From contig MU271284.1 in NCBI GenBank assembly GCA_021432655.1, positions 62,001 through 103,380 of the forward strand: a stretch of 41,380 bases of DNA, read 5' to 3'. Positions within the stretch are counted from its first letter, which is position 1. Every line of letters begins with the position of its first letter. Made by a program: the position numbers and the translations under genes. The DNA is from Atractiella rhizophila (Eukaryota). Shown piece after piece: positions 3,251-38,959 of the stretch. The notes beneath the pieces are model-generated. The model saw only the letters and a program-made list of their open reading frames with translations. It did not search any database and was not told where the DNA came from.

Positions 3251-4027
3251 CACCTTACATGATCGAGGACTTGCTTGGATCGAACGCTCTTGAAACTCGC
3301 CTTACACCGTCTGTTGTGTAGCTATCGACAAGAAATAGCGAAAAATAAAATGTCCCATTTATTGTTACATCAGCTCACATCCTTCAAGTCGCACGCTCGG
3401 ATTCATCTCTCCATCGGGAGCCTGATCAAAAGTAGCTGAATTACGCAACCGTCCATTCAAACAGTCTCAATATCCGACGTCTATGTGTTTGAAAGAGAGC
3501 GATAAATATACGTAGGATAAGATGTTGTCACAGGCACTGAATAAATGAAGCGGTACAGGATGTCGATGATGAGCCTGAGACGGGAGCTACAAAGGAAGTA
3601 AAGCAAGAACAGCAAAAAACGGCCGTGTGTTCAACTTCTCGAGATTGTCCAATTCCACGAGAATGAGGCGGAAGATTAGGGAGCCAAGATGGGACACGAG
3701 TGTTTGCCGATATCATCTCTCTGAAAACGATGATATGGACGATGTTGAAGGGTCGCTGATGGGGGTGCGAATGGCAGAGAAGAATATGAAGGAGCGTAGA
3801 CGGTGAGAAAGAAATGTGTGATTTAAAGGTGGCGACGGCCGCACTTGGAAAAAGGAGAGTGTTAGTTAAAGAGAGGATGAGCGCTGACGAGCTGTGGTCC
3901 ATGGTGCGAGAAACATCTAAAACGGAAAGGGAACGAAGAACAGAGTCCCTTCGCACGTAGTCAGTATTTCATTTCGACGGGCTGAGAGAATAAGAATGGC
4001 GCACAGGGATTCCTACAAGGAATGAGT

Positions 4028-5136
4028 TTAGGACACCGGGGGATAGTCTTCGTCTTCCTTCGGCAGCCTCCGCTGAACCACCACAAAATAACATCAGCAA
4101 GACTAGAAACTCGTGACGGCAGAAAGGAAGGCGAACTTTGCCTAACCCGACTCCGACACTTATTGTATCCAGAGCAAGCGTGGCATTCACTGTGATACCC
4201 AGGAGGTTCACATCCTGTATAATCATTAGAAGGAGGCGATGAGAGAACACAAGATACTTACTACGCTACTGTAGACCATAATCACAGACGTGGTGAGTAA
4301 AAGATTGGGGTCAGTTCATCATGATGCGACTTACATGCTGCTGATAACGACGTCAGCAAACACACATGATCGATGGAACGAGAGGACACTCACTCGCTGT
4401 CGGCGGAAAAATGGTCCAATTCAGCAATAACTCAGCACATGAGCGGGCAAACTCACCTACTGTAAGAGCAACAGTGGTCAGCCCAGAAATCAACAAAAGA
4501 AAGTTTGTGGAAGAAGAACTTACTCTCTATTCAATAGAATCATGACAAGCGGGTCGCGGTGACCTTGATAAGCAGGCTTTTGGCACTAGAAAGTATAAAC
4601 TTACGCGCTGCGATGGAATGTCGCCGTCAGCACTATCCTACGTAACGGAGAGGGAGGGGAGGCTCACCAGCTGCGACGAAGAATAAGCATCGAGCACAGT
4701 CAATGTTCTGATTGCAATGATGAAACAATGCTTACCCGCTGATACAGACGTCAGCAAAGATGCAAAAATAGAGAAACACACGTACCTTCTGCAATTCGCA
4801 ATTCGAGGAATCACAAGCAGTGAGATTAGTTGATTATTTAGAGCGTTGCACTTACTCCCTATCGCGGAATCAGACTTCAATTCTGTCAATCGAGGGACGG
4901 AGACCTACCAACTGGGGCCCACCAGAACAAGGACGCTCCGTCAGAGGTAAGAAATTATGGCATGAACAACAGCGCACCATCGAGCCTTTATCCTCCTGTC
5001 GCCAATGTGTCAATGATTTACTCAGGTCGAAACACAAGTTAACTTACGCTGCTGGGCTAGATTCAGGGGAGGCAGCCAAGGCGAGCTGACTGGTCCACAG
5101 TCCCAAAGCGAGAGAGATGAGAGCAGCAGGGCGCAT
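4028..5136 (-). CDS. Secreted 89-aa prepro-peptide encoded by a 15-exon micro-exon gene
   Basis: Exons (minus strand): 5136-5048, 4995-4978, 4911-4909, 4858-4856, 4788-4786, 4738-4736, 4670-4668, 4607-4605, 4526-4524, 4459-4457, 4396-4394, 4340-4335, 4268-4262, 4214-4137, 4072-4028. All 14 introns are GT..YAG and 47-78 nt long. The joined frame is open: MRPAALISLALGLWTSQLALAASPESSPAARIKARCWESGCADSDSISVDVNLLGITVNATLALDTISVGVGLGKRRLPKEDEDYPPVS*. Confidence 0.8.
4262..4911 (-). other. Array of nine consecutive 3-nt exons (TTG, GGA, AAG, CGG, CTG, CGC, AGA, TAG, CGA) followed by 6-nt and 7-nt exons
   Basis: A YAG-NNN-GT unit recurs every 50-80 nt. The donors following the eleven exons are GTAGGT, GTAAGT (x5), GTACGT, GTAAGC, GTGAGC and GTGAGT (x2). 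Branch-like motifs (GCTGAC, CTAAT, TTGAC) lie upstream of most acceptors. Confidence 0.85.
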
Positions 5137-6124
5137 TGTGGATTTTTCGAAAGTGATGATGTACAAAAACAAAGTGAAAGAGGCCGAAATGAAGGAGGGG
5201 AAGGGCCAGGAGCGAGCAGATCGAAAAGATAACGTCGAAGGCAGGCTGCGAGGGCGGGAAAAAGTGAGGGTGCCAGGCGGCGGGGATATTATACCACTTT
5301 TTGGACCGCTGTTCGCGAATTCGACCGCCTTGTAATTAGAAGTTTTGGCGCCGTCCGTTTACATGAAATTGTTGCGTGCCGTTCCCCGTCCTTTCTTTGG
5401 AACGTTGAGAGCTTTCTTACTCGACAAAGGCAGAAGATGGAAGTATTCTCAGTGCTCGTTGCATTCAAGAAAGAGGATTATCCACCGTGAAGAACCACTT
5501 AGAAGATGTAACTTGAGCAGAGGCAGTGGTCAAAAAATCGTCAAGGTGATGGCAGGACAACAGTTGCTGAAGCGAGAATTTAGCGAACTCCGGACTTGGA
5601 ATGGTGGAACGCCACAAGAAACTACGCCCGAAGTATTTCTGTCCTTACAACCGAGCAGGAAGGTCCTCCATTCAATCTCAGCCAATCACGCTGCCCGAGT
5701 TGATCGAAACCCGAAGAGGTTCGCAGACAGCAGCTTTGAGGTTCGTCTCTTGAGTGCTGAAAAGGAATACATGTTGTCTTCCCCGGCGTTCACTAAGCGA
5801 GCAGAAGTATTCGGAGGTGTGATGGACCATGTGCTAAGATCCGCAAATTTGGGACTATTCTGAAGCAATCGGGTTATTTGAAAATCATTCATTAACAAAC
5901 CTTACTTTGCTTGTCCAAGGCTCGTCATGTGATTCTAGGAAGCTCTGCACTTTTTGAGTGATCGCGGAGTTGGAGTTGATCGAGACTTTGGGATTGGGAT
6001 CCAGTATCGGGAGAGCAGGAAAAGAGAGCTACGAACCGCAGTAAATGTTTCATTATCAGCATTTCTTCCATGCGTTAACCTGAGTTGACGAGCAGGATAA
6101 GGCACAAACATCTGTGAAATCATC

Positions 6125-12393: not shown

Positions 12394-15300
12394 ATGGTGT
12401 CTAAGTCCCACAGGCGTCTTGACTTGAGGAAGGCCAATTTGGCGGCTGTTCAAGGTGCGATGTCCTTCCACGAGCGTGCACTTTGTATCTGACGCCTATT
12501 CGTTGGTAGATGTTCCCTCCACCCCACCGCTTGGTAGCTCAAAGCTCGACTCCTCTCTTAAACGCCACACTGCTCTCATTAAAAAGCTCAAAACTTCCCT
12601 CCACAGCGCTCCGTCGGCGGAGTTCATTAAAGAGATCAAAGGGTTGACCATAATGAAATACATGGAGGAAGTCGTCAGTGCGGTCGTGGAGGGCACGGGG
12701 AAATGTAGGAAGGAAGGAGAGGTGCAAGGAGCTGTCGAGGTGCGTTTCCACTCAACTTGACTTGAAATGGAGCGACGCGGAACTGTTTCCGTTACGTCCA
12801 TTCATAACCACCTGGGTTGTTTCAATGTCCAAGCATAAGCCCCCCTGTCTGTCACATCCATTAGGTATGCTGCCATTGATGGGCTGCTCTCTCGAATATA
12901 ACCGGGCTTCCCGACATTCTTCATGGCCTGTCAATAATTAATGCGCGCGCAGGAGAATAATACGCGCCATTCACTATATTTGCCAACCGTGAGAACGCTG
13001 CGTTATTCTCGAAAAGTGACTAGCCTCGCTAAAGCCCTCAGGACCGTTGATCCTGACACGCTCCATGTCAATTCTACAAAGTCTCACTAAATTAGCCAAG
13101 ACCGGCAGCTAACAGAATTATGTAGGTCATGTCCGCGATGCACCAACGCTTTCCAACACTGTTCACGCCGCCATTAACCGCAAACTTCCTCTCTCTTCTA
13201 GCACCCAGCAAAGCCTCTGCTAGTGCAGCGCCTGAACAACGGGAGAAGGAAGATACCGCAAGAGTTTCTCGCCAACGAGTACTTCTACGCATTTTCGCAG
13301 AACTCGAGCTCGTCGGTTTGGTGATGACGCCCACTGGACCAACAAAGAATGAGGGCGAAAACACATTTCAAATAATTAAAGAACTCGTACGTTGTCCTCT
13401 TCCCAGAACCACCAGAGAGGAGCTGATAGTGCAATTACTGGTGTAAAGTTGACGGCAGACAAGGAGGCGCTCCTCCTTTCCATTCCTGTAGCTACGGCGT
13501 TCGCTAAGCAATTGGGAAATCTATTCCTTCCAAGCAGTGCAGACAACCCCCCTCTTGTTGATGATGCAGACAATTCACTTGGAGACGAAGATATCATCCC
13601 CGTTCCCATGAAAGAAAAGTTCAAGAAACTTTTCACGCAGTATTATGATGCTCTGAGCAGGAGGGCTGTCAAGGAGAACCTTGTTCGCTATCCGGTTGTT
13701 CGAACAGCTTAGGCTGACTGGTTTGAAACAGTTCATGAAGGAAACGGACCGCCGGAATCACGAAGCATACATTCGCTCGGGTCAAATTTTTGAGGATCGA
13801 GCTCAGAATTACGAGACTCTGGCCAAGTCCTTTGAGAAGCTATGGGCTGGCGTGACGAGGTTTGTTCTCCGCCTCTATCGAACACAATCTACAGTCTGAA
13901 TATGTACCTGCAGCCTCTCAGAAGTCTTGGGAACATCCGTGCCTGAGCTGCCTTCCCTTCCTTCAACGACAATTACTTCTACTATTTCTTTTGGAGGCTC
14001 TACTGGTGGACCGACCGAAGGAGAAGGTGTGGGTAGCATCTGGGCTGATGAAGAAGAGCGGAAGTTTTACGAGGACATCGTGGACCTCAAAGGCGAAGTT
14101 CCTGGGAGCGTCCTTGTTTCCACCCAACAACCGCAGACCAGTAATGCGCCAGCCAAACTTACTTCCGTCCCAGAACCTATCAAGGCAGAAGAGGCAGAAG
14201 ACGACGATGACGCGTACGTTTTCCAGACCTCGTTCAGTCACCAAATTGAACTTGTATTTGGACAGACCTCCAACCTTAAAAGAAGATCCTGAGGAAGCTC
14301 TCCCTCCCGCTCCCGCCGCACAGTTGCAAGCTATACTCGCCCGACTGCCAGAGTGTACAAGTCGAGCAACCATCGACAAAGCTGCTGTTGATTTCGCTTT
14401 CTTGAATAGCAAACCGGCGAGAAAACGCCTGACAAGAGTACGTATTGTACGAAATGTTTGAATCAAGCTTAATATCCAACAGTTCTTAGCCTCCGTTAGC
14501 AGGAATCGTACCGACTTGTTGCCGTACTATGCTCGGCTGACAGCGACGCTGAGCAAGTATATGCCGGATATTGGGAGTGGGTTGATTGCTGCAGTGAGTT
14601 AACACCTTTCCGTTGACACTGATTTTGATTATTCCGTGAAGCTAGAAGACGAATTCCGCTACCTGCAAAGGAAAAAAAGCGTCAATCTTGCTGAAACGAG
14701 AGCGAAGGTTAGTACATCCTTGTGCATCACTTGTCGCGGCTGAAGCAACGTAGAACACGCGCTACCTTGCAGAGCTCACCAAATTCAAGATCACGCCAAA
14801 CCATCTCATCCTTTTCTGCATCAAGTCGTGTGTCGATGACCTTACCGGACCCAATGTTGACAATCTCTGTAATCTCCTGGAAGGCTCTGGTCGCTTCTTA
14901 CTAAAATCTGAAGCGACTGGAGAGAAGACTGCTTCTCTGGTTGGTATTCTGACTCTACTATATCTAGCAAAGATTCATTAGGCCCGAATAGTTGGACGTG
15001 ATGAAACGGAAAAAGGCGGCTCAAAATTTCACCCATCAGCAAATAACTATGTTGGAAAATGCTTATTACCAGGTTGGTAGTGACGACAATTTGTGCGGCT
15101 AGCTCATAAGCTCGTTCAGTGCGATCCGCCAGACAGAGTCGTTATCCCGCCAAAGGAAAGAACGCCAATGGAGCTGTTTTTGCGGCACCTGTTTTTCAAT
15201 GTCTTGACCAAAAAGACGATCGACTCCGTGATAAAGACGTTGAGAAAGATGCATTGGGAGGATCCCAAGGTAAGCGTTAATTTAGACCCCGATATGCAGC

Positions 15301-18300
15301 TCAGCTCCGTGCAGATATTTCAGTTGCTTGTGTCGCACTTTACCAAAGTTTGGAAAGCTAAATTCAGCAATATTCATCTGTTTGCCATCCTTCTTCATGA
15401 TCTATCAAAGTTTCACCCGGACTTTCACGTCGTGGTTGTCGATCAAGTGCTGGAGAATCTAAAAGTCGGTATGGAAGTATGTAACTTCCTAAACCTGTCT
15501 ACACAGTCTTATTTCTCTCTCAAGGTCAATAACTTTAAATACAATCAGCAGAGGATCGCCACCATCAAGTACATCGGCGAGATGTACAACTATCGCGTCA
15601 TCGATTCGAAAGTCGTTCTCGATGTGCTATGGACCCTCACCATGTTTGGACACCGTGCGTCTCGACTTTCCGTCCCTAACCTGATTAAATGCTATTTCCA
15701 GCTGGAAATCGCCCATCACCTGAGGATCCTTCTTTACGAGATGCCGCCGATGATTTCTTTAGAGTCCGGTTGACGTGCACTCTTCTGGACACTTGCGGAT
15801 CATGCTTTGATCGAGGACAGCTCAGAAAGAAGCTTGACCATTTTCTCATCTTCTTCCAGGTAGTTCCCTTTCACTGCTTGAACATACCATTCTAACAATA
15901 TATGCCTCAGATGTACATTCTTGCGAAGCAAACTCCACCAATGGATGTCGGCTTTATGATCAACGACACTTTTGATGTTAGTTCGTTTATCTTCCGGTCC
16001 CGTCGACTAACGATGTCAGCTAGTCATTACGCCCCAAGATGACGATGATGAAGACATACGAGGAAGCTTCGAATGCAGTAGACAACATGGTTGCCGCTAA
16101 TCAGGCTGCCGTAGAATCCCACGAGCCTGGTGTGTAACATCATGCAGTTCGGCGTGATCTCACAGCATTTTAGCTGAAGAAGAGCTCGATGACGATGCAT
16201 CAGATGGAGAAGTCGATATTGCCAGTGATCCCATGGAACTAGCTTCAGACAGCGAGTCAAGCGATGAAGCTGAAGAAGACGTATGTGATTATTCTTGGCC
16301 ATACAATTAATCTGAAATCCGGTATGCGTAGCCTGATGCTCATGAGGCCGAAAGGGACGAGAGTGAAGACGAAGACGAGATGGAAATTGGTCGAAACACC
16401 TCCTACGGTCCTACTGTAATCACCAGAGAAGAGCTAATAATGCAATTATTGGTGTAAAGTTGACGGCAGACAAGGAGGCGCTCCTCCTTTCCATTCCTGT
16501 AGCTACGGCTTTCGCTAAGCAATTGGGCAATCTATTCCTTCCAAGCAGTGCAGACAACCCCCCTCTTGTTGATGATGCAGACAATTCACTTGGAGACGAA
16601 GATATCATCCCCGTTCCCATGAAAGAAAAGTTCAAGAAACTTTTCACGCAGTATTATGATGCTCTAAGCAGGAGGGCTGTCAAAGAGAACCTTGTTCGCT
16701 ATCCCGTTGTTCGAACAGCTTAGGCTGACTGGTTTGAAACAGTTCATGAAGGAAACGGACCGCCGGAATCACGAAGCATACATTCGCTCAGGTCAAATTT
16801 TCGAGGATCGAGCTCAGAATTACGAGACTCTGGCCAAGTCCTTTGAGAAGCTATGGGCTGGCGTGACGAGGTTTGTTCTCCGCCTCTATCGAACACAATC
16901 TACAGTCTGAATATGTACCTGCAGCCTCTCAGAAGTCTTGGGAACATCCGTGCCTGAGCTGCCTTCCCTTCCTTCAACGACAATTACTTCTACTATTTCT
17001 TTTGGAGGCTCTACTGGTGGACCGACCGAAGGAGAAGGTGTGGGTAGCATCTGGGCTGATGAAGAAGAGCGGAAGTTTTACGAGGACATCGTGGACCTCA
17101 AAGGCGAAGTTCCTGGGAGCGTCCTTGTTTCCACCCAACAACCGCAGACCAGTAATGCGCCAGCCAAACCTACTTCCGTCCCAGAACCTATCAAGGCAGA
17201 AGAGGCAGAAGACGACGATGACGCGTACGTTTTCCAGACCTCGTTCAGTCACCAAGTGGAACTTGTATTTGGACAGACCCCCAACCTTAAAAGAAGATCC
17301 TGAGGAAGCCCTCCCTCCGGCTCCCGCCGCACAGTTGCAAGCTATACTCGCCCGACTGCCAGAGTGTACAAGTCGAGCAACCATCGACAAAGCTGCTGTT
17401 GATTTCGCTTTCTTGAATAGCAAACCGGCGAGAAAACGCCTGACAAGAGTATGTGTTGGACGAAATGTCTGAGCCAAGCTTAACGTCCAACAGTTCTTAG
17501 CCTCCGTTAGCAGGAATCGTACCGACTTGTTGCCCTACTATGCCCGACTGACTGCGACGCTGAGCAAGTACATGCCGGATATTGGGAGTGGGTTGATTGC
17601 TGCAGTGAGTTAACACCTTTCTGTTGACACTGATTTGATTATTGCCTGAAGCTGGAAGACGAATTCCGCTACCTGCAGAGGAAAAAAAGTGTCAATCTTG
17701 CCGAAACGAGAGCGAAAGTTAGTATATCCTTGTGCATCACTCATGGCGGCTGAAGCAACCTAGAACACCCGTTACCTTGCAGAGCTCACCAAATTCAAGA
17801 TCACGCCAAACCATCTCATCCTTTTCTGCATCAAGTCGTGTGTCGATGACCTTACCGGACCCAATGTTGACAATCTCTGTAATCTCCTGGAAGGCTCTGG
17901 TCGCTTCTTACTAAAATCTGAAGCGACCGGGGAGAAGACTGCTTCCCTCGTTGGTATTTTGACTCTACTATATCTAGCAAAGGTTCATGAGGCCCGAATA
18001 GTTGGAGGTGATGAAACGGAAAAAGGCGGCTCAAAATTTCACCCATCAGCAAATCACTATGTTGGAAAATGCTTATTACCAGGTTGGTAGTGACGACAAT
18101 TGTGCGGCTAGCTCATAAGCTCGTTCAGTGCGATCCGCCAGACAGAGTCGTTATCCCGCCAAAGGAAAGAACGCCAATGGAACTGTTTTTGCGGCACCTG
18201 TTTTTCAATGTCTTGACCAAAAAGACGATCGACTCCGTGATAAAGACGTTGAGAAAAATGCATTGGGAGGATCCCAAGGTTAGCGTTTATTCAGGCCCTT

Positions 18301-19944
18301 ATATGCAGTATGCAGCTCAACTCTGTGCAGATATTTCAGTTGCTTGTGTCGCACTTTACGAAAGTTTGGAAAGCTAAATTCAGCAATATTCATCTGTTCG
18401 CTATCCTTCTTCATGATTTATCAAAGTTTCATCCGGACTTTCACGTTGTGGTCGTCGATCAAGTGCTGGAGAACCTAAAAATCGGTATGGAAGTATGTAA
18501 CTTCTTAAACGTCTCTACACAGTCTTATTTCTCTCTCAAGGTCAATAACTTTAAATACAATCAGCAGAGGATCGCCACCATCAAGTACATTGGCGAGATG
18601 TACAACTATCGCGTTATCGATTCGAAAGTCGTTCTCGATGTGCTCTGGACCCTCACTATGTTTGGACATCGTGTGTCTCGACTTTGCGTCCCTAACCTGA
18701 TTAAATGCTATTTCCAGCTGGAAATCGCCCATCACCTGAGGATCCTTCTTTACGAGATGCTGCCGATGATTTCTTTAGAGTCCGGTTGACGTGCACTCTT
18801 CTGGACACTTGCGGATCATGCTTTGATCGAGGACAGCTCAGAAAGAAGCTTGACCATTTTCTCATCTTCTTCCAGGTAGTTCCCTTTCACTGCTTGAACA
18901 TACCATTCTAACAATATATGCCTCAGATGTACATTCTTGCGAAGCAAACTCCACCAATGGATGTCGGCTTTATGATCAACGACACTTTTGATGTTAGTTC
19001 GTTTATCTTCCTGTCCCGTCGACTAATGATGTCAGCTAGTCATTACGCCCCAAGATGACGATGATGAAGACATACGAGGAAGCTTCGAATGCTGTAGACA
19101 ACATGGTTGCCGCTAATCAGGCTGCCGTAGAATCCCACGAGCCTGGTGTGTAACATCATGCAGTTCGGCGTGATCTCACAGCATTTTAGCTGAAGAAGAG
19201 CTCGATGATGATGCATCAGATGGAGAAGTCGATATTGCCAGTGATCCCATGGAACTAGCTTCAGACAGCGAGTCAAGCGATGAAGCTGAAGAAGACGTAT
19301 GTGATTATTCTTGGCCATACAATTAATCTGAAATCCGGTATGCGTAGCCTGATGCTCATGAGGCCGAAAGGGACGAGAGTGAAGACGAAGACGAGATGGA
19401 AATTGGTCGAAACACCTCCTACGGTCCTACTGTTGAGGATGAAGAAGAATTCGAAAGGGAACTGGCGAAGATGATGATTGACACTAGTGATTCTAGAAAG
19501 GCCGCGAATGAAAAGAGAACGGCCCTCGCAGATGTGGCGTTGCCAGTTTGGAAGAAAAAGGAAAAGATCCGGGATGAAGAACTGGATGATGAGGAGGATG
19601 GGCTTCAACACATGAAGTTCACGGTACTGACAAAGAAAGGGAACAAAAATCAGGTACGCTATTCTTCCCCCAATTCGACGAAATCTAATTAGTTGTAGAC
19701 ACGGACGCTGCAAGTACCTGTCGATAGTGCTATCGCTGTACACACTCGAAGCAAACAAGAGCAAGTGAGGGCAGAACAGCAGCAGCTCAAAAAGCTTGTC
19801 TTGGAGTTCGAAGAAAGAGAGGAAGCTCAGGAGAAGAAGAGTGAGTGATGCAGATGACCTGGGCTTTTTTGACAACGTCTTTCAGGTCTGCAAGAAAGTA
19901 TGGCGAAGAGAGGTATCAGAATCAAGTACGGTGAACCAGCATAA
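12394..19944 (+). CDS. UPF2: Nonsense-mediated decay factor Upf2 (MIF4G domains), carrying an internal 3-kb tandem duplication
   Basis: LDSSLKRHTALIKKLK, HEAYIRSGQIFEDR, IWADEEERKFYEDIVDLK, IDKAAVDFAFLNSK, DDFFRVRLTCTLLDTCG, and a C-terminal Upf1-binding-like region FTVLTKKGNKNQTR. Confidence 0.9.
12762..13071 (+). other. Structured intronic element bounded by a 13-nt imperfect inverted repeat in UPF2 intron 2
   Basis: ttgaaatggagcg (12762-12774) pairs with cgctccatgtcaa (13059-13071) at 12 of 13 positions, and several internal hairpins lie between them. Confidence 0.45.
13407..19433 (+). repeat. Tandem direct duplication: unit 1 13407-16417 (3011 bp), unit 2 16418-19433 (3016 bp)
   Basis: The two units align along their whole length with scattered substitutions and small indels. 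The junction reads cctactgt|aatcaccagag. Confidence 0.97.
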
Positions 19945-27501: not shown

Positions 27502-29744
27502 ATGCCTCCCTCAGCATCTAAACAAAAGCGCCTGGCAGAAAAGGTGAGTCTTCCCGAGTTCCATCTTCATCAGTGCCTCGTAGCTGATCGCTCGTTTCTG
27601 TGTACAGGCTGCAAAGGCAGCTTCCAAAGGAGTGAAGGAGAATGGCTCTACCTCCGCTCCATCCACCAACGGAACCTCCACCCCGATCGCAGCTTCCAGT
27701 CGGACGTCGATGGATGGCTTGGACGAGATGAGCAAGCTCAAATTGGCCACCGATCGCTCAGGCAGCGGCGTCTTGACGAGCGACCCTCAGAGTAGGGATA
27801 TTCAGATGGAGAGTTACACGCTTTCTTTCCACGGAAGATTGTTAATCGAGAACGCGAGCATCGCGCTCAATTACGGACAGAGGTAAGTTTTTCGCTGCAT
27901 GATTTGGGAAGGGAAGAGTGATGCGAACTCGTGTTTAGGTATGGGCTGTTGGGAGAGAATGGGTCTGGAAAGGTGCGCCTTGTTTTCCGGGTGGGCGAGA
28001 GGACTGGAATGCTGATTTACATCGTCGAAATAGACCACTTTCCTCCGCTCACTCGCTGAGCGAGACGTCGAGATTCCTTCGCACATTGATGTCTATCTCG
28101 TCGCCGGCGAGGTCGAGCCTTCGGATGTGAACGCGTTAGATTTCATCGTGAACTCGGCTCGAGAAAAGGTGGACCGGTTAGAGAAGGAATTGGAGGAGAT
28201 GATGACTTCTGAATTCCCGGACGATGCCTTGATTCAACAGAAGACGGATGAATTGGAAGAGCTCGATCCTTCCACTTTCGAGAGCAAGGCTTCTTCCATC
28301 CTTCACGGTCTCGGTTTCACGGCTCAGACAATGTTGAAGAGGACGAGGGATATGTCTGGTGGTTGGAGGATGCGTGTTGCTCTCGCAAGGGCCCTCTTCA
28401 TCCGTCCTCACCTTTCTTCTCCTCGACGAGCCCACCAATCACTTGGATCTGGAGGCTGTCGTGTGGCTCGAAGCCTATCTCAGCACTTACAGTCACATCC
28501 TTGTCATCACCTCTCACTCTGCCGATTTCATGGATTCAATTTGCACAAATATCATGGACCTCAATCACCAACGTCGTTTGACCTACTACGGAGGAAATTA
28601 CTCAGCATACGTGAAGACAAAGACGGAAAACGAAGTCAATCAGATGAAGGCGTACCAAAAGCAGCAGGATGAGGTTTGCCTTTCCATCCTCCCAATCCTC
28701 ACATCGGTGGCTGATAGAGATTGATAACAGATTGCACACATCAAGAAGTTCATCGCTTCCGCTGGTACCTACGCGAACTTGGTGAAGCAAGCAAAATCGA
28801 AACAGAAGATCATCGACAAAATGGAAGCCGCAGGTCTCATCGAGCCCGTCTTTGTTCCTAAACCTCTCCGGTTCAACTTTGACGACATTCGAAAGATGCC
28901 TCCTCCCATCATCGCTTTCAATGATGTCGCATTTTCCTATTCGGGCAAGAAGGAGGATTTCTTGTATCAAGATCCTTTCCTTCGGTGTCGATATGGACTC
29001 GCGTGTGGCTATTGTTGGACAGAACGGAACGGGAAAATCTACTCTCCTCAATCTCATCACTGGGGACTTGATGCCAGTCAAGGGAAGCGTATCCCGCCAC
29101 TCAGGTCTCAAACTTGGTACGTCCAACTTCTCTTTTCCATGTCGATGCTAATGATTGACATCCTGGTCCATGTAGCCAAATACTCTCAGCACTCCGCGGA
29201 CCAGTTACCGTACGACAAATCCCCTCTGGAGCACTTCGAGTCCACATACAAGCAACGTTTCCCCGAACGAGACACTCAAGCCTGGCGCGCTCAGCTTGGT
29301 CGTTTCGGTCTTTCAGGCGCACATCAAACTGCCGCCATCCGCACGCTCTCTGACGGATTGCGGAATCGAGTCGTCTTCTCCCAACTGGCAATGGAGCAAC
29401 CTCACGTCCTGCTCCTCGACGAACCTACGAACCATCTTGATATGGGTTCGATCGACGCTCTTGCGCGAGCGATCAAGGAGTATGAGGGAGGAGTCGTCAT
29501 TGTTTCTCACGATTTCAGACTCATCAGTCAGGTCGCGGAGGAATTGTGGGAGGTTAAGGATAAGAAGATTGTCAATCTCACGAAGCAGGATATCAATATT
29601 CAGCAGTACAAGAAGATCCTGTCGGATCGGTCGCAAAAGTTCGTTTTTCCTTACGTTCTTTCTGACAATGGGTATTGATGAAGGAATAGGCAAATCGAAA
29701 AGGCCAAATTGGTTTCGAAGGCTGCGAAATCTAACAAGGTCTAG
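27502..29744 (+). CDS. ARB1: ABC-F ATPase Arb1/ABCF2 (two apparent +1 frameshifts at about 28413 and 28974)
   Basis: [80 protein letters not shown] and [11 protein letters not shown]. Confidence 0.93.
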
Positions 29745-36263: not shown

Positions 36264-38959
36264 CTATTTACTTTTCGACTTCCTCTTCCTCTTCTTCCCA
36301 TCCTCAAACGAGTTCGCACTCTTCAAATCTCGCGACAATGGGTCGTCTCCCTTCACTTTGTAAATGCGGACGATCCAGTTTTCAGAAGTGAAAGCCTCCT
36401 CTGTTACCAGCAGCAACACAATAGCCCATCAATCAGTTTGTGCTTTGTTCGAGAAGGAGGGAAAGGACGCACCAAGGGTATCAAGTACTGGTCCGGGTTT
36501 TGGCATCCGTTGGTTTCGCACACGATCTAGGGCTGGCGAAGGACCGAAGAGTTCCGCGAAACGGTAATAGCTCATCTTGTACATCAACTGGACAAGTTAG
36601 GTGTTAACTTGACGTACTTTGGAGAAGGAAGGACGTACGCTGTTCTTCATCGCAGGTGTAGCCTCTTCGTCTACTTTATACTCTCCGCGGGAGGTGAAGA
36701 AGCTCCTTTCTGACACTTCGTCAGGCCAAATACCTTCCTGTAAAGCCCAACTGGTCAGGACGAATACTTAAGCAGAAGCAACAAGAACGCACTGAGATCC
36801 TGATCATCCACAAGAACTTGTTGATGTCGTCTCCAGAGAATCCCAACAATCCGCCGAAAATGATCAAGACGTAGTCCACATCGTGCTTCCTCAGAATGGG
36901 ATACGCGACCTCCTCTCTCGTGCTCATCGCCTTACCTACAGTTGCGATATGGGTGTTGTTCCAGGTATTGTTATCCACCAATGTCGTCCTATCAGCAAAT
37001 CCAGCGATCTGATATCCATAGTCCCACCAGCTCATGATCTTGGCATCCTCAGCCGTGTTTTGTCTCAACCAATAATACGCCTCTCTGAAATCATCGATGA
37101 TGTTCGCGCTTCCATCTGGATTGTGGGAAGCGAGCACGACGGAGGGAGAAGAGTAGGCGGATTGGGTGACCCAGGTGCAGTGGAGACAGAAGATGGAGAG
37201 GAGGAGAGTGAAAGCACCGATGAGGATGATGCGCACGTCGATAGAGCGCACTGAGGGAATTTCGTCGTTCTCAACAATGGGAAGAGGGGCGACAGTGGTG
37301 GTCGCTGTTGTGGAAGCGGGGGTAGTGGCAGCAGCAGAAGCACCCTTCTTCTTCTTTGACGAAGTGCTCGCAACGCTTGCGGCGGCATTCTTCTCGGTTT
37401 TCGAATCTGCCTCGGCAACTGGTTCGAGAGGATCCAAATATGTCTCATAGATAGTGGAAACCACCATGGCGGCGGTGACACAGACGACAGGTGTAAGGAC
37501 GAGCATCAGACGAACCATAACACCCGAGAAGTAAGATGCCATGACTGAGTAAATAATGAGGAACACGTGTTCGTCCCTCAGTTCTCGGAAACACATGTAC
37601 ACTCCGGCAGGGAAGAGATAGATGAGCATTTGGAGGTCGAAGAAGAAGGATGGCCAGGCAGTGGGCTGATGTTCGGAGACGGAGGCGATGATGGGGATGT
37701 GGATCTGAAGGATTCCTCTTTCGTCAACACAAACAAATGGACGAGACAATTGACACACCTTTGCATATCCCGTATCCCACAAGCTGTAGAACCGCCCCGT
37801 CCATGGTGCAATGTATCCTTTAAGGGTGAGGAACACGAGGGTGAGCGCTCCGCCAACGCCGATGAATACGACACCAGCGGTCAAGAAAGTCCTGAACTGT
37901 TTAGTGCCGAGATGGCTTCTGACTACTTCCACGAACGCGACAATCTGAAGAAGACCGAAAACACCAAGCGCAGCCATATGCTCGCTCGTCCTCACAGGTT
38001 GGAAACCGACAAAGGGGACTTGCATGGATGCAAGAGTGCCGATGGCGTAAAAGGAGGAATAGGCGACGTAGAGGCGGGAGGTGAAGCGTCCCATAAGGAT
38101 GAGAGTGAGAGCGTGGAGGGGAAGCATGTTGGTAATGAACGCGTATCCTCCCCAAGCAGCTACCATGTAAAAGTAGAAGAGAGCGGTGAGTGAGCCCCAT
38201 AATGTTGAGCCAAGCTTGAGCGCCTTTATCCAGAGATAAAATGTGGTCATGAGGATGAAGATGGCAATGGCTTCGTTGTCGTAACTTCCAGCAACACTTC
38301 GAGAGATGTACCCAGGAACTATACCGATGAATAATGCGGCCCAGAGTCCAGTTCCTTCGCTGCCCACTTCCTTACCAAGAAGATACGTGGAGTATGCGGT
38401 GAGGCCAGAGAAGGCCGGGGCGAGAAGAACACAGATGTTGCGGATGTCGACAGGGAGCGAGAAGAAGTGGAGAATGTTGTAGATTAGGTGAGAAGTCAGC
38501 ATCAAGCCAGGGTAGACTGTCCCTCCAACAACTCGTCCTAGGGGATACCATGCTGTTGGATCGAACCAATTCCAGAATTCCTGCTTCGCAGTCAGTATGG
38601 GGCAACTGCAACCACAACGCAACATACGTAGACTCCATCTCGAACTAATACCCGTGTTGCTCGACTAGAAAACGTTCGACTTCAACTTTCAGAAGTGATG
38701 GAATGGCTCACTAGTTGAACCACGGGTCGCTGCGCGCTTTATTTAGCATGTGCCCTGAGAACATGATAGTAGCAACTTACAATTCATGGATGATGCTCTC
38801 GAACCTGACTACAGCAAACAAGCGAGAGCTGACCGCGGCTCCGGCTATGAGCGCGATGATGATGATTCGAAGTAAAGAGAGGGTATTGGTTGTGACTTCT
38901 GCATTGGAGAAAATGGAGGGAACGGGATACGTGAATTTGAAAGATTGGACGCTCGACAT
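36264..38959 (-). CDS. STT3: Oligosaccharyltransferase catalytic subunit STT3
   Basis: [58 protein letters not shown] and DDINKFLWM. Confidence 0.97.

Follow-up and report, generated by a model that had tools for sequence, protein, structure and literature searches.

The question raised by this locus is whether a run of exons of only three letters each, found on the minus strand of the 41,380 nt window (the whole stretch of DNA analysed here), is genuinely joined into a mature mRNA and, if so, whether these triplets are included constitutively or are used in varying combinations to alter a small peptide, as an earlier note on the sequence had proposed. The data presented below indicate that the locus is probably a genuine nuclear gene with 14 short introns, in which the nine 3-nt exons are included constitutively and alternative processing is mainly intron retention. 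The source of the gene is most likely the basidiomycete Atractiella rhizophila, a root-associated fungus of the Pucciniomycotina.

Layout of the gene and its introns

The gene extends from an ATG at position 5136 to a TAA stop codon at 4030–4028 on the minus strand, and comprises 15 coding exons with a coding sequence of 270 nt, which specifies 89 amino acids. Its features are listed in Table 1. Contigs covering 5049/5053–5250 extend the 5′ UTR to at least 5250, and the N-terminus encoded by exon 1 is hydrophobic (MRPAALISLALGLWTSQLALA...). The intron in the 3′ UTR is represented by loose ends at 4004 in contigs from all four of the sequencing runs described below (X1, X2, X3 and X5); these loose ends are identical, or nearly so, to window positions 3918–3947.

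The block of micro-exons had been placed at 4335–4978 in the earlier note. That span corresponds exactly to the interval from exon 2, at the start of the chain, to the 6-nt exon, and the coordinates confirm the accompanying claim that the boundaries share a phase, phase 2 being found at all boundaries from exon 1 as far as the 6-nt exon. The 3-nt exon TAG does not introduce an in-frame stop codon; it is read as GA|T AG|C.

Table 1. Features of the micro-exon gene, in order of transcription. Positions are those of the window.
Feature	Position	Strand	Evidence
Exon 1, coding part, 89 nt, phase 2 at its end	5048..5136	minus	Coordinates and translation
Exon 2, 18 nt, GAGGATAAAGGCTCGATG, encoding A-R-I-K-A-R plus TG of the first Cys codon	4978..4995	minus	Coordinates; X5 record 15, X1 record 5
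3-nt exon TTG, acceptor cccag, donor GTAGGT	4909..4911	minus	Coordinates; X5 record 15, X1 record 5
3-nt exon GGA, donor GTAAGT	4856..4858	minus	Coordinates, pattern match; X5 record 15, X1 record 5
3-nt exon AAG, donor GTACGT	4786..4788	minus	Coordinates; X5 record 15, X1 record 5
3-nt exon CGG, donor GTAAGC	4736..4738	minus	Coordinates, pattern match; X5 record 15, X1 record 5 (AGCCG)
3-nt exon CTG, donor GTGAGC	4668..4670	minus	Coordinates, pattern match; X5 record 15, X1 record 5
3-nt exon CGC, donor GTAAGT	4605..4607	minus	Coordinates, pattern match; X5 record 15, X1 record 5
3-nt exon AGA, donor GTAAGT	4524..4526	minus	Coordinates, pattern match; X5 record 15
3-nt exon TAG, donor GTGAGT	4457..4459	minus	Coordinates, pattern match; X5 record 15
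3-nt exon CGA, donor GTGAGT	4394..4396	minus	Coordinates, pattern match; X5 record 15, X2 loose end
6-nt exon CAGCAT, tandem cag|cag acceptor	4335..4340	minus	Coordinates; X2 loose end, 33-nt loose end of X5 record 15
7-nt exon TAGCGTA, returning the frame to phase 0	4262..4268	minus	Coordinates; X2 record 9, X5 record 14
78-nt exon, DVNLLGITVNATLALDTISVGVGLGK	4137..4214	minus	Coordinates; contigs of X1, X2, X5; identical in P0001
Last coding exon, RRLPKEDEDYPPVS, stop codon 4030-4028 and start of 3′ UTR	4005..4072	minus	Joint 4072>4137 (GT..AG) in X1, X2, X5
3′ UTR intron, 56 nt, GTGCGC...AAG, 24 nt past the stop codon	3949..4004	minus	Loose ends

Tandem acceptors, cag|CAG (4338–4343) and cag|TAG (4266–4271), are situated on the minus strand before the 6-nt and 7-nt exons, respectively. 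The upstream AG is the one used in the contigs. Use of the downstream AG would remain in frame in both cases, removing one Ser codon at the 6-nt exon or changing Ile-Ser to Ile at the 7-nt exon.

All 14 of the coding introns begin with GT and end with AG, and their lengths range from 47 to 78 nt; a CTRAY branch motif was observed in 10 of them. The pattern YAGNNNGTRWGY was matched 13 times in the window, where 3.09 matches were expected, and a count of 13 was reached in none of 100 shuffles. Eight of the 13 matches are situated on the minus strand between 4329 and 4861, with a spacing of 59–120 nt, and these correspond to seven of the nine triplets and to the terminal CAT of the 6-nt exon. The two remaining triplets were not matched because their donors, GTACGT and GTAGGT, lie outside the pattern.

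When the introns were compared with one another, their similarity was not above that of shuffled controls (best pair 12, as against 14 for the 99.9th percentile of the null distribution), and copies of the introns were not found elsewhere within the 41-kb window. A recent tandem duplication or an introner-type spread is therefore unsupported by the intron comparisons within the window. One 21-nt intron 3′ end is common to 4340–4360 and 4738–4758 (90%), a match that is too short to argue for duplication. The chain may have originated by serial intron gain or by an old duplication of exon-plus-intron units. An older duplication of such units, each comprising two exons, is hinted at by the D-S-D-S-I-S segment, in which xGA and xAG triplets can be seen by eye to alternate.

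Transcript contigs across the chain

The RNA data consist of assembled contigs, with depths of 2–22, from four of 24 matching public runs (X1, X2, X3 and X5), all of them small-share. Three of these four runs are presumed to be RNA; X2 is a soil metatranscriptome library. Expected strings were derived from the coordinates and then compared with the contigs, and stretches free of contigs (e.g. 4346–4521) were given no evidential weight. The remaining runs, X4 and X6–X24, were likewise given no weight as regards expression or habitat. The contigs contain spliced joints, and it is apparent, therefore, that processed transcripts are present.

Record 15 of X5 reads exon 1 (with one letter different, at 5048), then exon 2, and ends in a loose end of 33 letters. 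The 30 letters of the loose end that are shown correspond exactly to TTG, GGA, AAG, CGG, CTG, CGC, AGA, TAG, CGA and CAG, and its length of 33 nt is that of the chain through CAGCAT. Exon 2 is joined in this contig both to exon 1 and to TTG; the joint to TTG is also found in record 5 of X1. Record 2 of X1 runs from 4030 across the joint 4072>4137, continues through the 78-nt exon and then bridges 4214 to 5047. The bridge contains 57 letters plus one that is ambiguous, equal to the 58 letters expected with full inclusion, which is a match of length, the letters themselves being unprinted.

Record 5 of X1 is partly spliced. It reads exon 2|TTG|GGA, keeps the intron 4855–4789, continues with AAG|CGG|CTG|CGC and keeps the intron that begins at 4604. 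The first six triplets are present in order, five junctions of the chain are spliced, and both AGCCG and the loose end are as predicted. Further along the gene, record 9 of X2 contains CGA|CAGCAT|TAGCGTA joined to 4214, with the intron 4136–4073 removed. Record 14 of X5 retains the intron 4334–4269 and has the two introns downstream removed; it too joins the 7-nt exon to 4214, with three letters different.

Each of the 14 coding introns is removed in at least one contig, and two runs, belonging to two studies, include contigs in which the joined triplets are found letter for letter, and in order. Wherever a contig enters the chain, all of the triplets of its span are present in order. Skipping of a micro-exon was observed in none of the four reported joints (contigs of four runs, from which rare variants are dropped by assembly), and the alternative forms that were seen are retained introns (records 3–5 of X1 and record 14 of X5), beside fully spliced forms. 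Since contigs drop rare variants, these results neither prove constitutive inclusion nor support combinatorial use, and skipping could occur at a low level or under specific conditions. Several contigs end in the chain or at its edge, which could reflect branching between isoforms.

At window position 5090, G is found in all four runs and C in the window (plus strand), and X1 contains two variants of exon 1 (records 6 and 7). It follows that several alleles or copies are expressed, none of them identical to the window. The difference at 5090, taken together with changes in X5 that match those of the paralogue P0002 (see below), indicates that the contigs may stem from other strains or gene copies. 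Two degenerate exon patterns had no matches in metagenome contigs.

Intron definition is usual in fungi. In the mechanism proposed here, each of the 47–78 nt introns would be recognized alone, by intron definition, and neighbouring introns would be removed sequentially, with no fixed order. Adjacent introns would have to be removed in turn because a 3-nt exon is too small to hold the acceptor and donor complexes of two spliceosomes together, with the consequence that partly spliced intermediates would accumulate. The introns of record 5 of X1 are, in order, spliced, spliced, retained, spliced, spliced, spliced and retained, a mixed pattern which indicates that intermediates exist and that removal follows no fixed order. 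All of the triplets are present in the mature product; the chain would thus serve as constitutive coding sequence, and alternative processing would consist mainly of intron retention and not of exon skipping.

Predicted product, public gene models and rival explanations

Translation of the joined frame, MRPAAL...ARIKARCWESGCADSDSISVDVNLLGITVNATLALDTISVGVGLGKRRLPKEDEDYPPVS, contains ...ARIKARCWESGCADSDSISVDVNLL..., and the peptide given in the earlier note is thereby recovered. The predicted product also includes the stretch CWESGCADSDSISV, and its C-x4-C segment, CWESGC, is encoded by the micro-exons. Residues 4–22 have a Kyte-Doolittle value of 1.63 and are followed by A-L-A|A; this N-terminal hydrophobic stretch is a putative signal peptide. 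After the moderately hydrophobic core LLGITVNATLALDTISVGV (Kyte-Doolittle 1.56, and 1.17 in P0002) come KRR and an acidic tail. This core could be a membrane anchor, and the product could be a short membrane-anchored protein as an alternative to a secreted pro-peptide. The protein is small and, by the homologue searches described below, restricted to its lineage; its secretion is predicted from sequence.

For the protein searches, an in-frame reference of 40 aa, taken from around the 78-nt exon, served as the query. One protein was matched, P0001 (NCBI hypothetical protein BT69DRAFT_1332629 of Atractiella rhizophila, 80 aa). It is identical, letter for letter, to the product with all nine triplets omitted: the P0001 model has a single 637-nt intron (4977–4341) where the RNA has nine exons, and is without WESGCADSD, which includes one Cys of the Cys pair. 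As 27 is a multiple of three, omission of the triplets leaves no frame error. The public gene model appears to be wrong, and the absence of WESGCADSD from it is probably due to the inability of transcript aligners to place 3-nt exons. Alternatively, P0001 could represent a real isoform in which all nine are skipped.

The sole relative, found in a word-based search with P0001 and with HMMER among 1.84 billion representatives, was P0002 (BT69DRAFT_1343535, 50 aa), from the same species. Its V-S-V and V-G changes match record 14 of X5. The P0002 model is truncated, its start falling within the intron that precedes the 7-nt exon, and it is probably without its true 5′ exons, any micro-exon chain included.

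Pfam contained no match above the cut-off for P0001 (best DUF3778, E 0.21). For the reading frames on both strands across this interval, too, the only Pfam match was below the cut-off (DUF3757, E 0.036), and a plus-strand gene is therefore unsupported. No Rfam match was found in 3800–5400, so that known RNAs hosted by the introns are also unsupported; introns of 47–78 nt are too short for snoRNAs. The protein atlas had no usable feature match, and its structure rows were uninformative (model pLDDT 0.44).

A first alternative to constitutive inclusion of an invariant chain is that the chain is a hypervariable module, which changes rapidly among paralogues or alleles, either through substitutions or because exon units are gained and lost, the variation being genomic and not made by splicing. 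This is doubtful, although it is hinted at by record 9 of X2, in which the chain differs from the window more than do the exons downstream of it. In the 27-letter loose end of that record, the 16 letters adjoining the 78-nt exon are those of the window, and six of the next 11 chain letters differ (..AA|TAG|AGA|CAG versus ..TG|CGC|AGA|TAG); across the two exons downstream, the contig has two differences in 147 letters (6/27 versus 2/147, Fisher p = 2e-4). The second Cys of C-x4-C is replaced in this variant. TAG precedes AGA in it, an order that is impossible by linear splicing of the window locus; an alternative exon choice at that locus was therefore ruled out, and the variant must derive from another copy or strain. 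This one contig end suggests that variation in the chain segment may be genomic in origin and not a product of splicing. There are, in addition, at least two paralogues in the species, and the alternation of xGA and xAG noted by eye in D-S-D-S-I-S is compatible with duplication of two-exon units. The divergence, however, concerns the end of just one contig, from the soil metatranscriptome, in a comparison that presumes equal exon number, and the similarity among the introns does not exceed that of the shuffled controls (12 versus 14, the null 99.9th percentile).

Secondly, slow clearing of the dense introns could limit the output of protein, with intron-retaining transcripts that contain premature stops being held back or degraded. 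A coding sequence of 270 nt interrupted by 14 introns is consistent with this, as are the contigs with retained introns observed in two runs beside fully spliced forms, but the latter may represent ordinary pre-mRNA or DNA carry-over, and an effect of this kind is considered unlikely.

The role put forward in the earlier note was combinatorial: regulated skipping of single 3-nt exons would alter the length and Cys content of C-x4-C, with some of the combinations ending in TGA. The arithmetic behind that proposal is sound. When the 512 inclusion patterns were enumerated, skipping of any triplet preserved the frame, skipping of GGA or CGC created TGA, and skipping of TTG removed the first Cys (C-W becoming W), all as had been claimed; 328 of the 512 patterns are open to the normal stop, and these encode 287 distinct proteins. 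The shared phase of the boundaries, the identity of the public 80-aa model with the all-skipped form and the breaks of contigs within the chain would each be in keeping with such a role. A precedent is provided by the schistosome micro-exon genes, which are discussed as a case in which alternative splicing varies the proteins secreted (PMC10526429). Against it stand the four reported joints of the four runs, with no skip and with the triplets always in order, and the X2 variant, whose different exon order is unobtainable from the window locus by skipping. Alternative splicing in fungi is mostly intron retention, and exon skipping is disfavoured where introns are recognized by intron definition, which also counts against regulated use of the triplets. 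Such regulation appears quite improbable, and a combinatorial role is unlikely to be the main one.

The notion that the feature is not real, and consists of chance splice-like motifs or of the one 637-nt intron assumed in the P0001 model, can be given hardly any credence, as the triplets are joined in order, letter for letter, in contigs and the motifs cluster far above shuffles; the single intron was rejected because the triplets are present in RNA.

Comparison with known systems and genomic surroundings

The nearest analogue in logic to the present gene is the micro-exon genes (MEGs) of Schistosoma mansoni. These contain 10–20 exons of 6–81 bp, mostly of 15 bp and mostly multiples of three, and introns of 100 to about 5000 bp; they encode a signal peptide and are hard to annotate (PMC10526429). 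Like the MEGs described there, the present gene has a signal-peptide-like exon followed by a run of very short, frame-preserving exons, has no recognisable domains, and is one with which annotation struggles. Twelve of its exons are of 18 nt or less, and 11 of these, i.e. all except the 7-nt exon, are multiples of three, in agreement with the MEG layout. Unlike the MEGs, which are animal genes with much longer introns, it is a fungal gene with introns of 47–78 nt and nine exons of 3 nt, and 58 of its 270 coding letters are in exons of 18 nt or less. No sequence relation to MEG proteins was found in the homologue searches (one same-species paralogue; Pfam nothing above the cut-off), and alternative exon use was unseen here in contigs of four runs, from which rare isoforms may be missing. 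It is conceivable, but unlikely, that the gene belongs to a small Atractiella micro-exon gene family, in which the 3-nt chain would act as a dedicated hypervariable module within a peptide that is secreted or displayed at the surface where fungus and root meet. Such a module would be diversified from one gene copy to another, through substitutions or the gain and loss of exon-plus-intron units, and in addition by skipping that keeps the frame, and would make the family an independently evolved and more extreme fungal counterpart of the MEGs.

The Basidiomycota are already known to contain spliceosomal exons of no more than 3 nt. In Coprinopsis cinerea, 27 exons of 3 nt are found in 26 genes and 89 gene models contain an exon of 3 nt or less; such exons are missed without long reads (PMC12230235). 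Those counts allow at most two such exons per gene, in contrast to the nine in a row, together with exons of 6, 7 and 18 nt, in the present gene. Ultra-short micro-exons are also misannotated in plants (PMC8831610), and RPS24 contains three consecutive micro-exons of 3, 18 and 22 bp that are alternatively used (PMC12207440). The resemblance to these cases lies in tiny coding exons that are dropped by aligners and annotators. The runs that the excerpts of these two papers describe are, however, much shorter, with no chain of 3-nt exons, and RPS24 is spliced by exon definition, in animals.

Recursive splicing, which involves zero-length exons and ratchet points (PMC6224609), was considered as well. 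It shares with the chain an acceptor situated directly before a donor and the removal of a long interval in several steps. Nothing is left in the mRNA in recursive splicing, whereas three coding letters per step stay in the mature RNA here, and it was rejected since the triplets are kept in spliced contigs. Searches of the openly accessible literature revealed no description of consecutive 3-nt exons forming a chain, in fungi or elsewhere.

Single 3-nt exons were already known; nine of them in succession, in a gene with 14 introns per 270 coding letters, were described in none of the papers found, and are supported here by RNA contigs. The chain provides a natural test case for the encounter of the spliceosome with exons that are smaller than the stretch covered by either splice-site complex, and it allows study of the sequence in which crowded introns are spliced out, and of the pile-up of same-phase introns at a spacing of 3 nt. 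Because annotators and aligners drop such exons without causing a frame error, fungi rich in introns may contain further genes of this type that have gone unnoticed. Should the chain prove variable, whether between copies or by splicing, it would represent a new route by which a plant-associated fungus varies a small exported peptide.

Neighbouring genes in the window have long, uninterrupted frames. These include STT3 (36721–38664, minus strand), with a frame of 647 aa, and, on the plus strand, an ABC-F type ATPase (28034–29678) and a PP2A-type phosphatase (242–787). The long exons of these neighbours indicate that the chain is a local peculiarity, atypical for the region. A perfect head-to-tail tandem duplication of approximately 3.0 kb was also observed in the window, at 13407–16417 and 16418–19433, with 96.8% identity between the copies, each of which contains an open frame with an MIF4G domain (E 2.8e-16 for 15084–15773).
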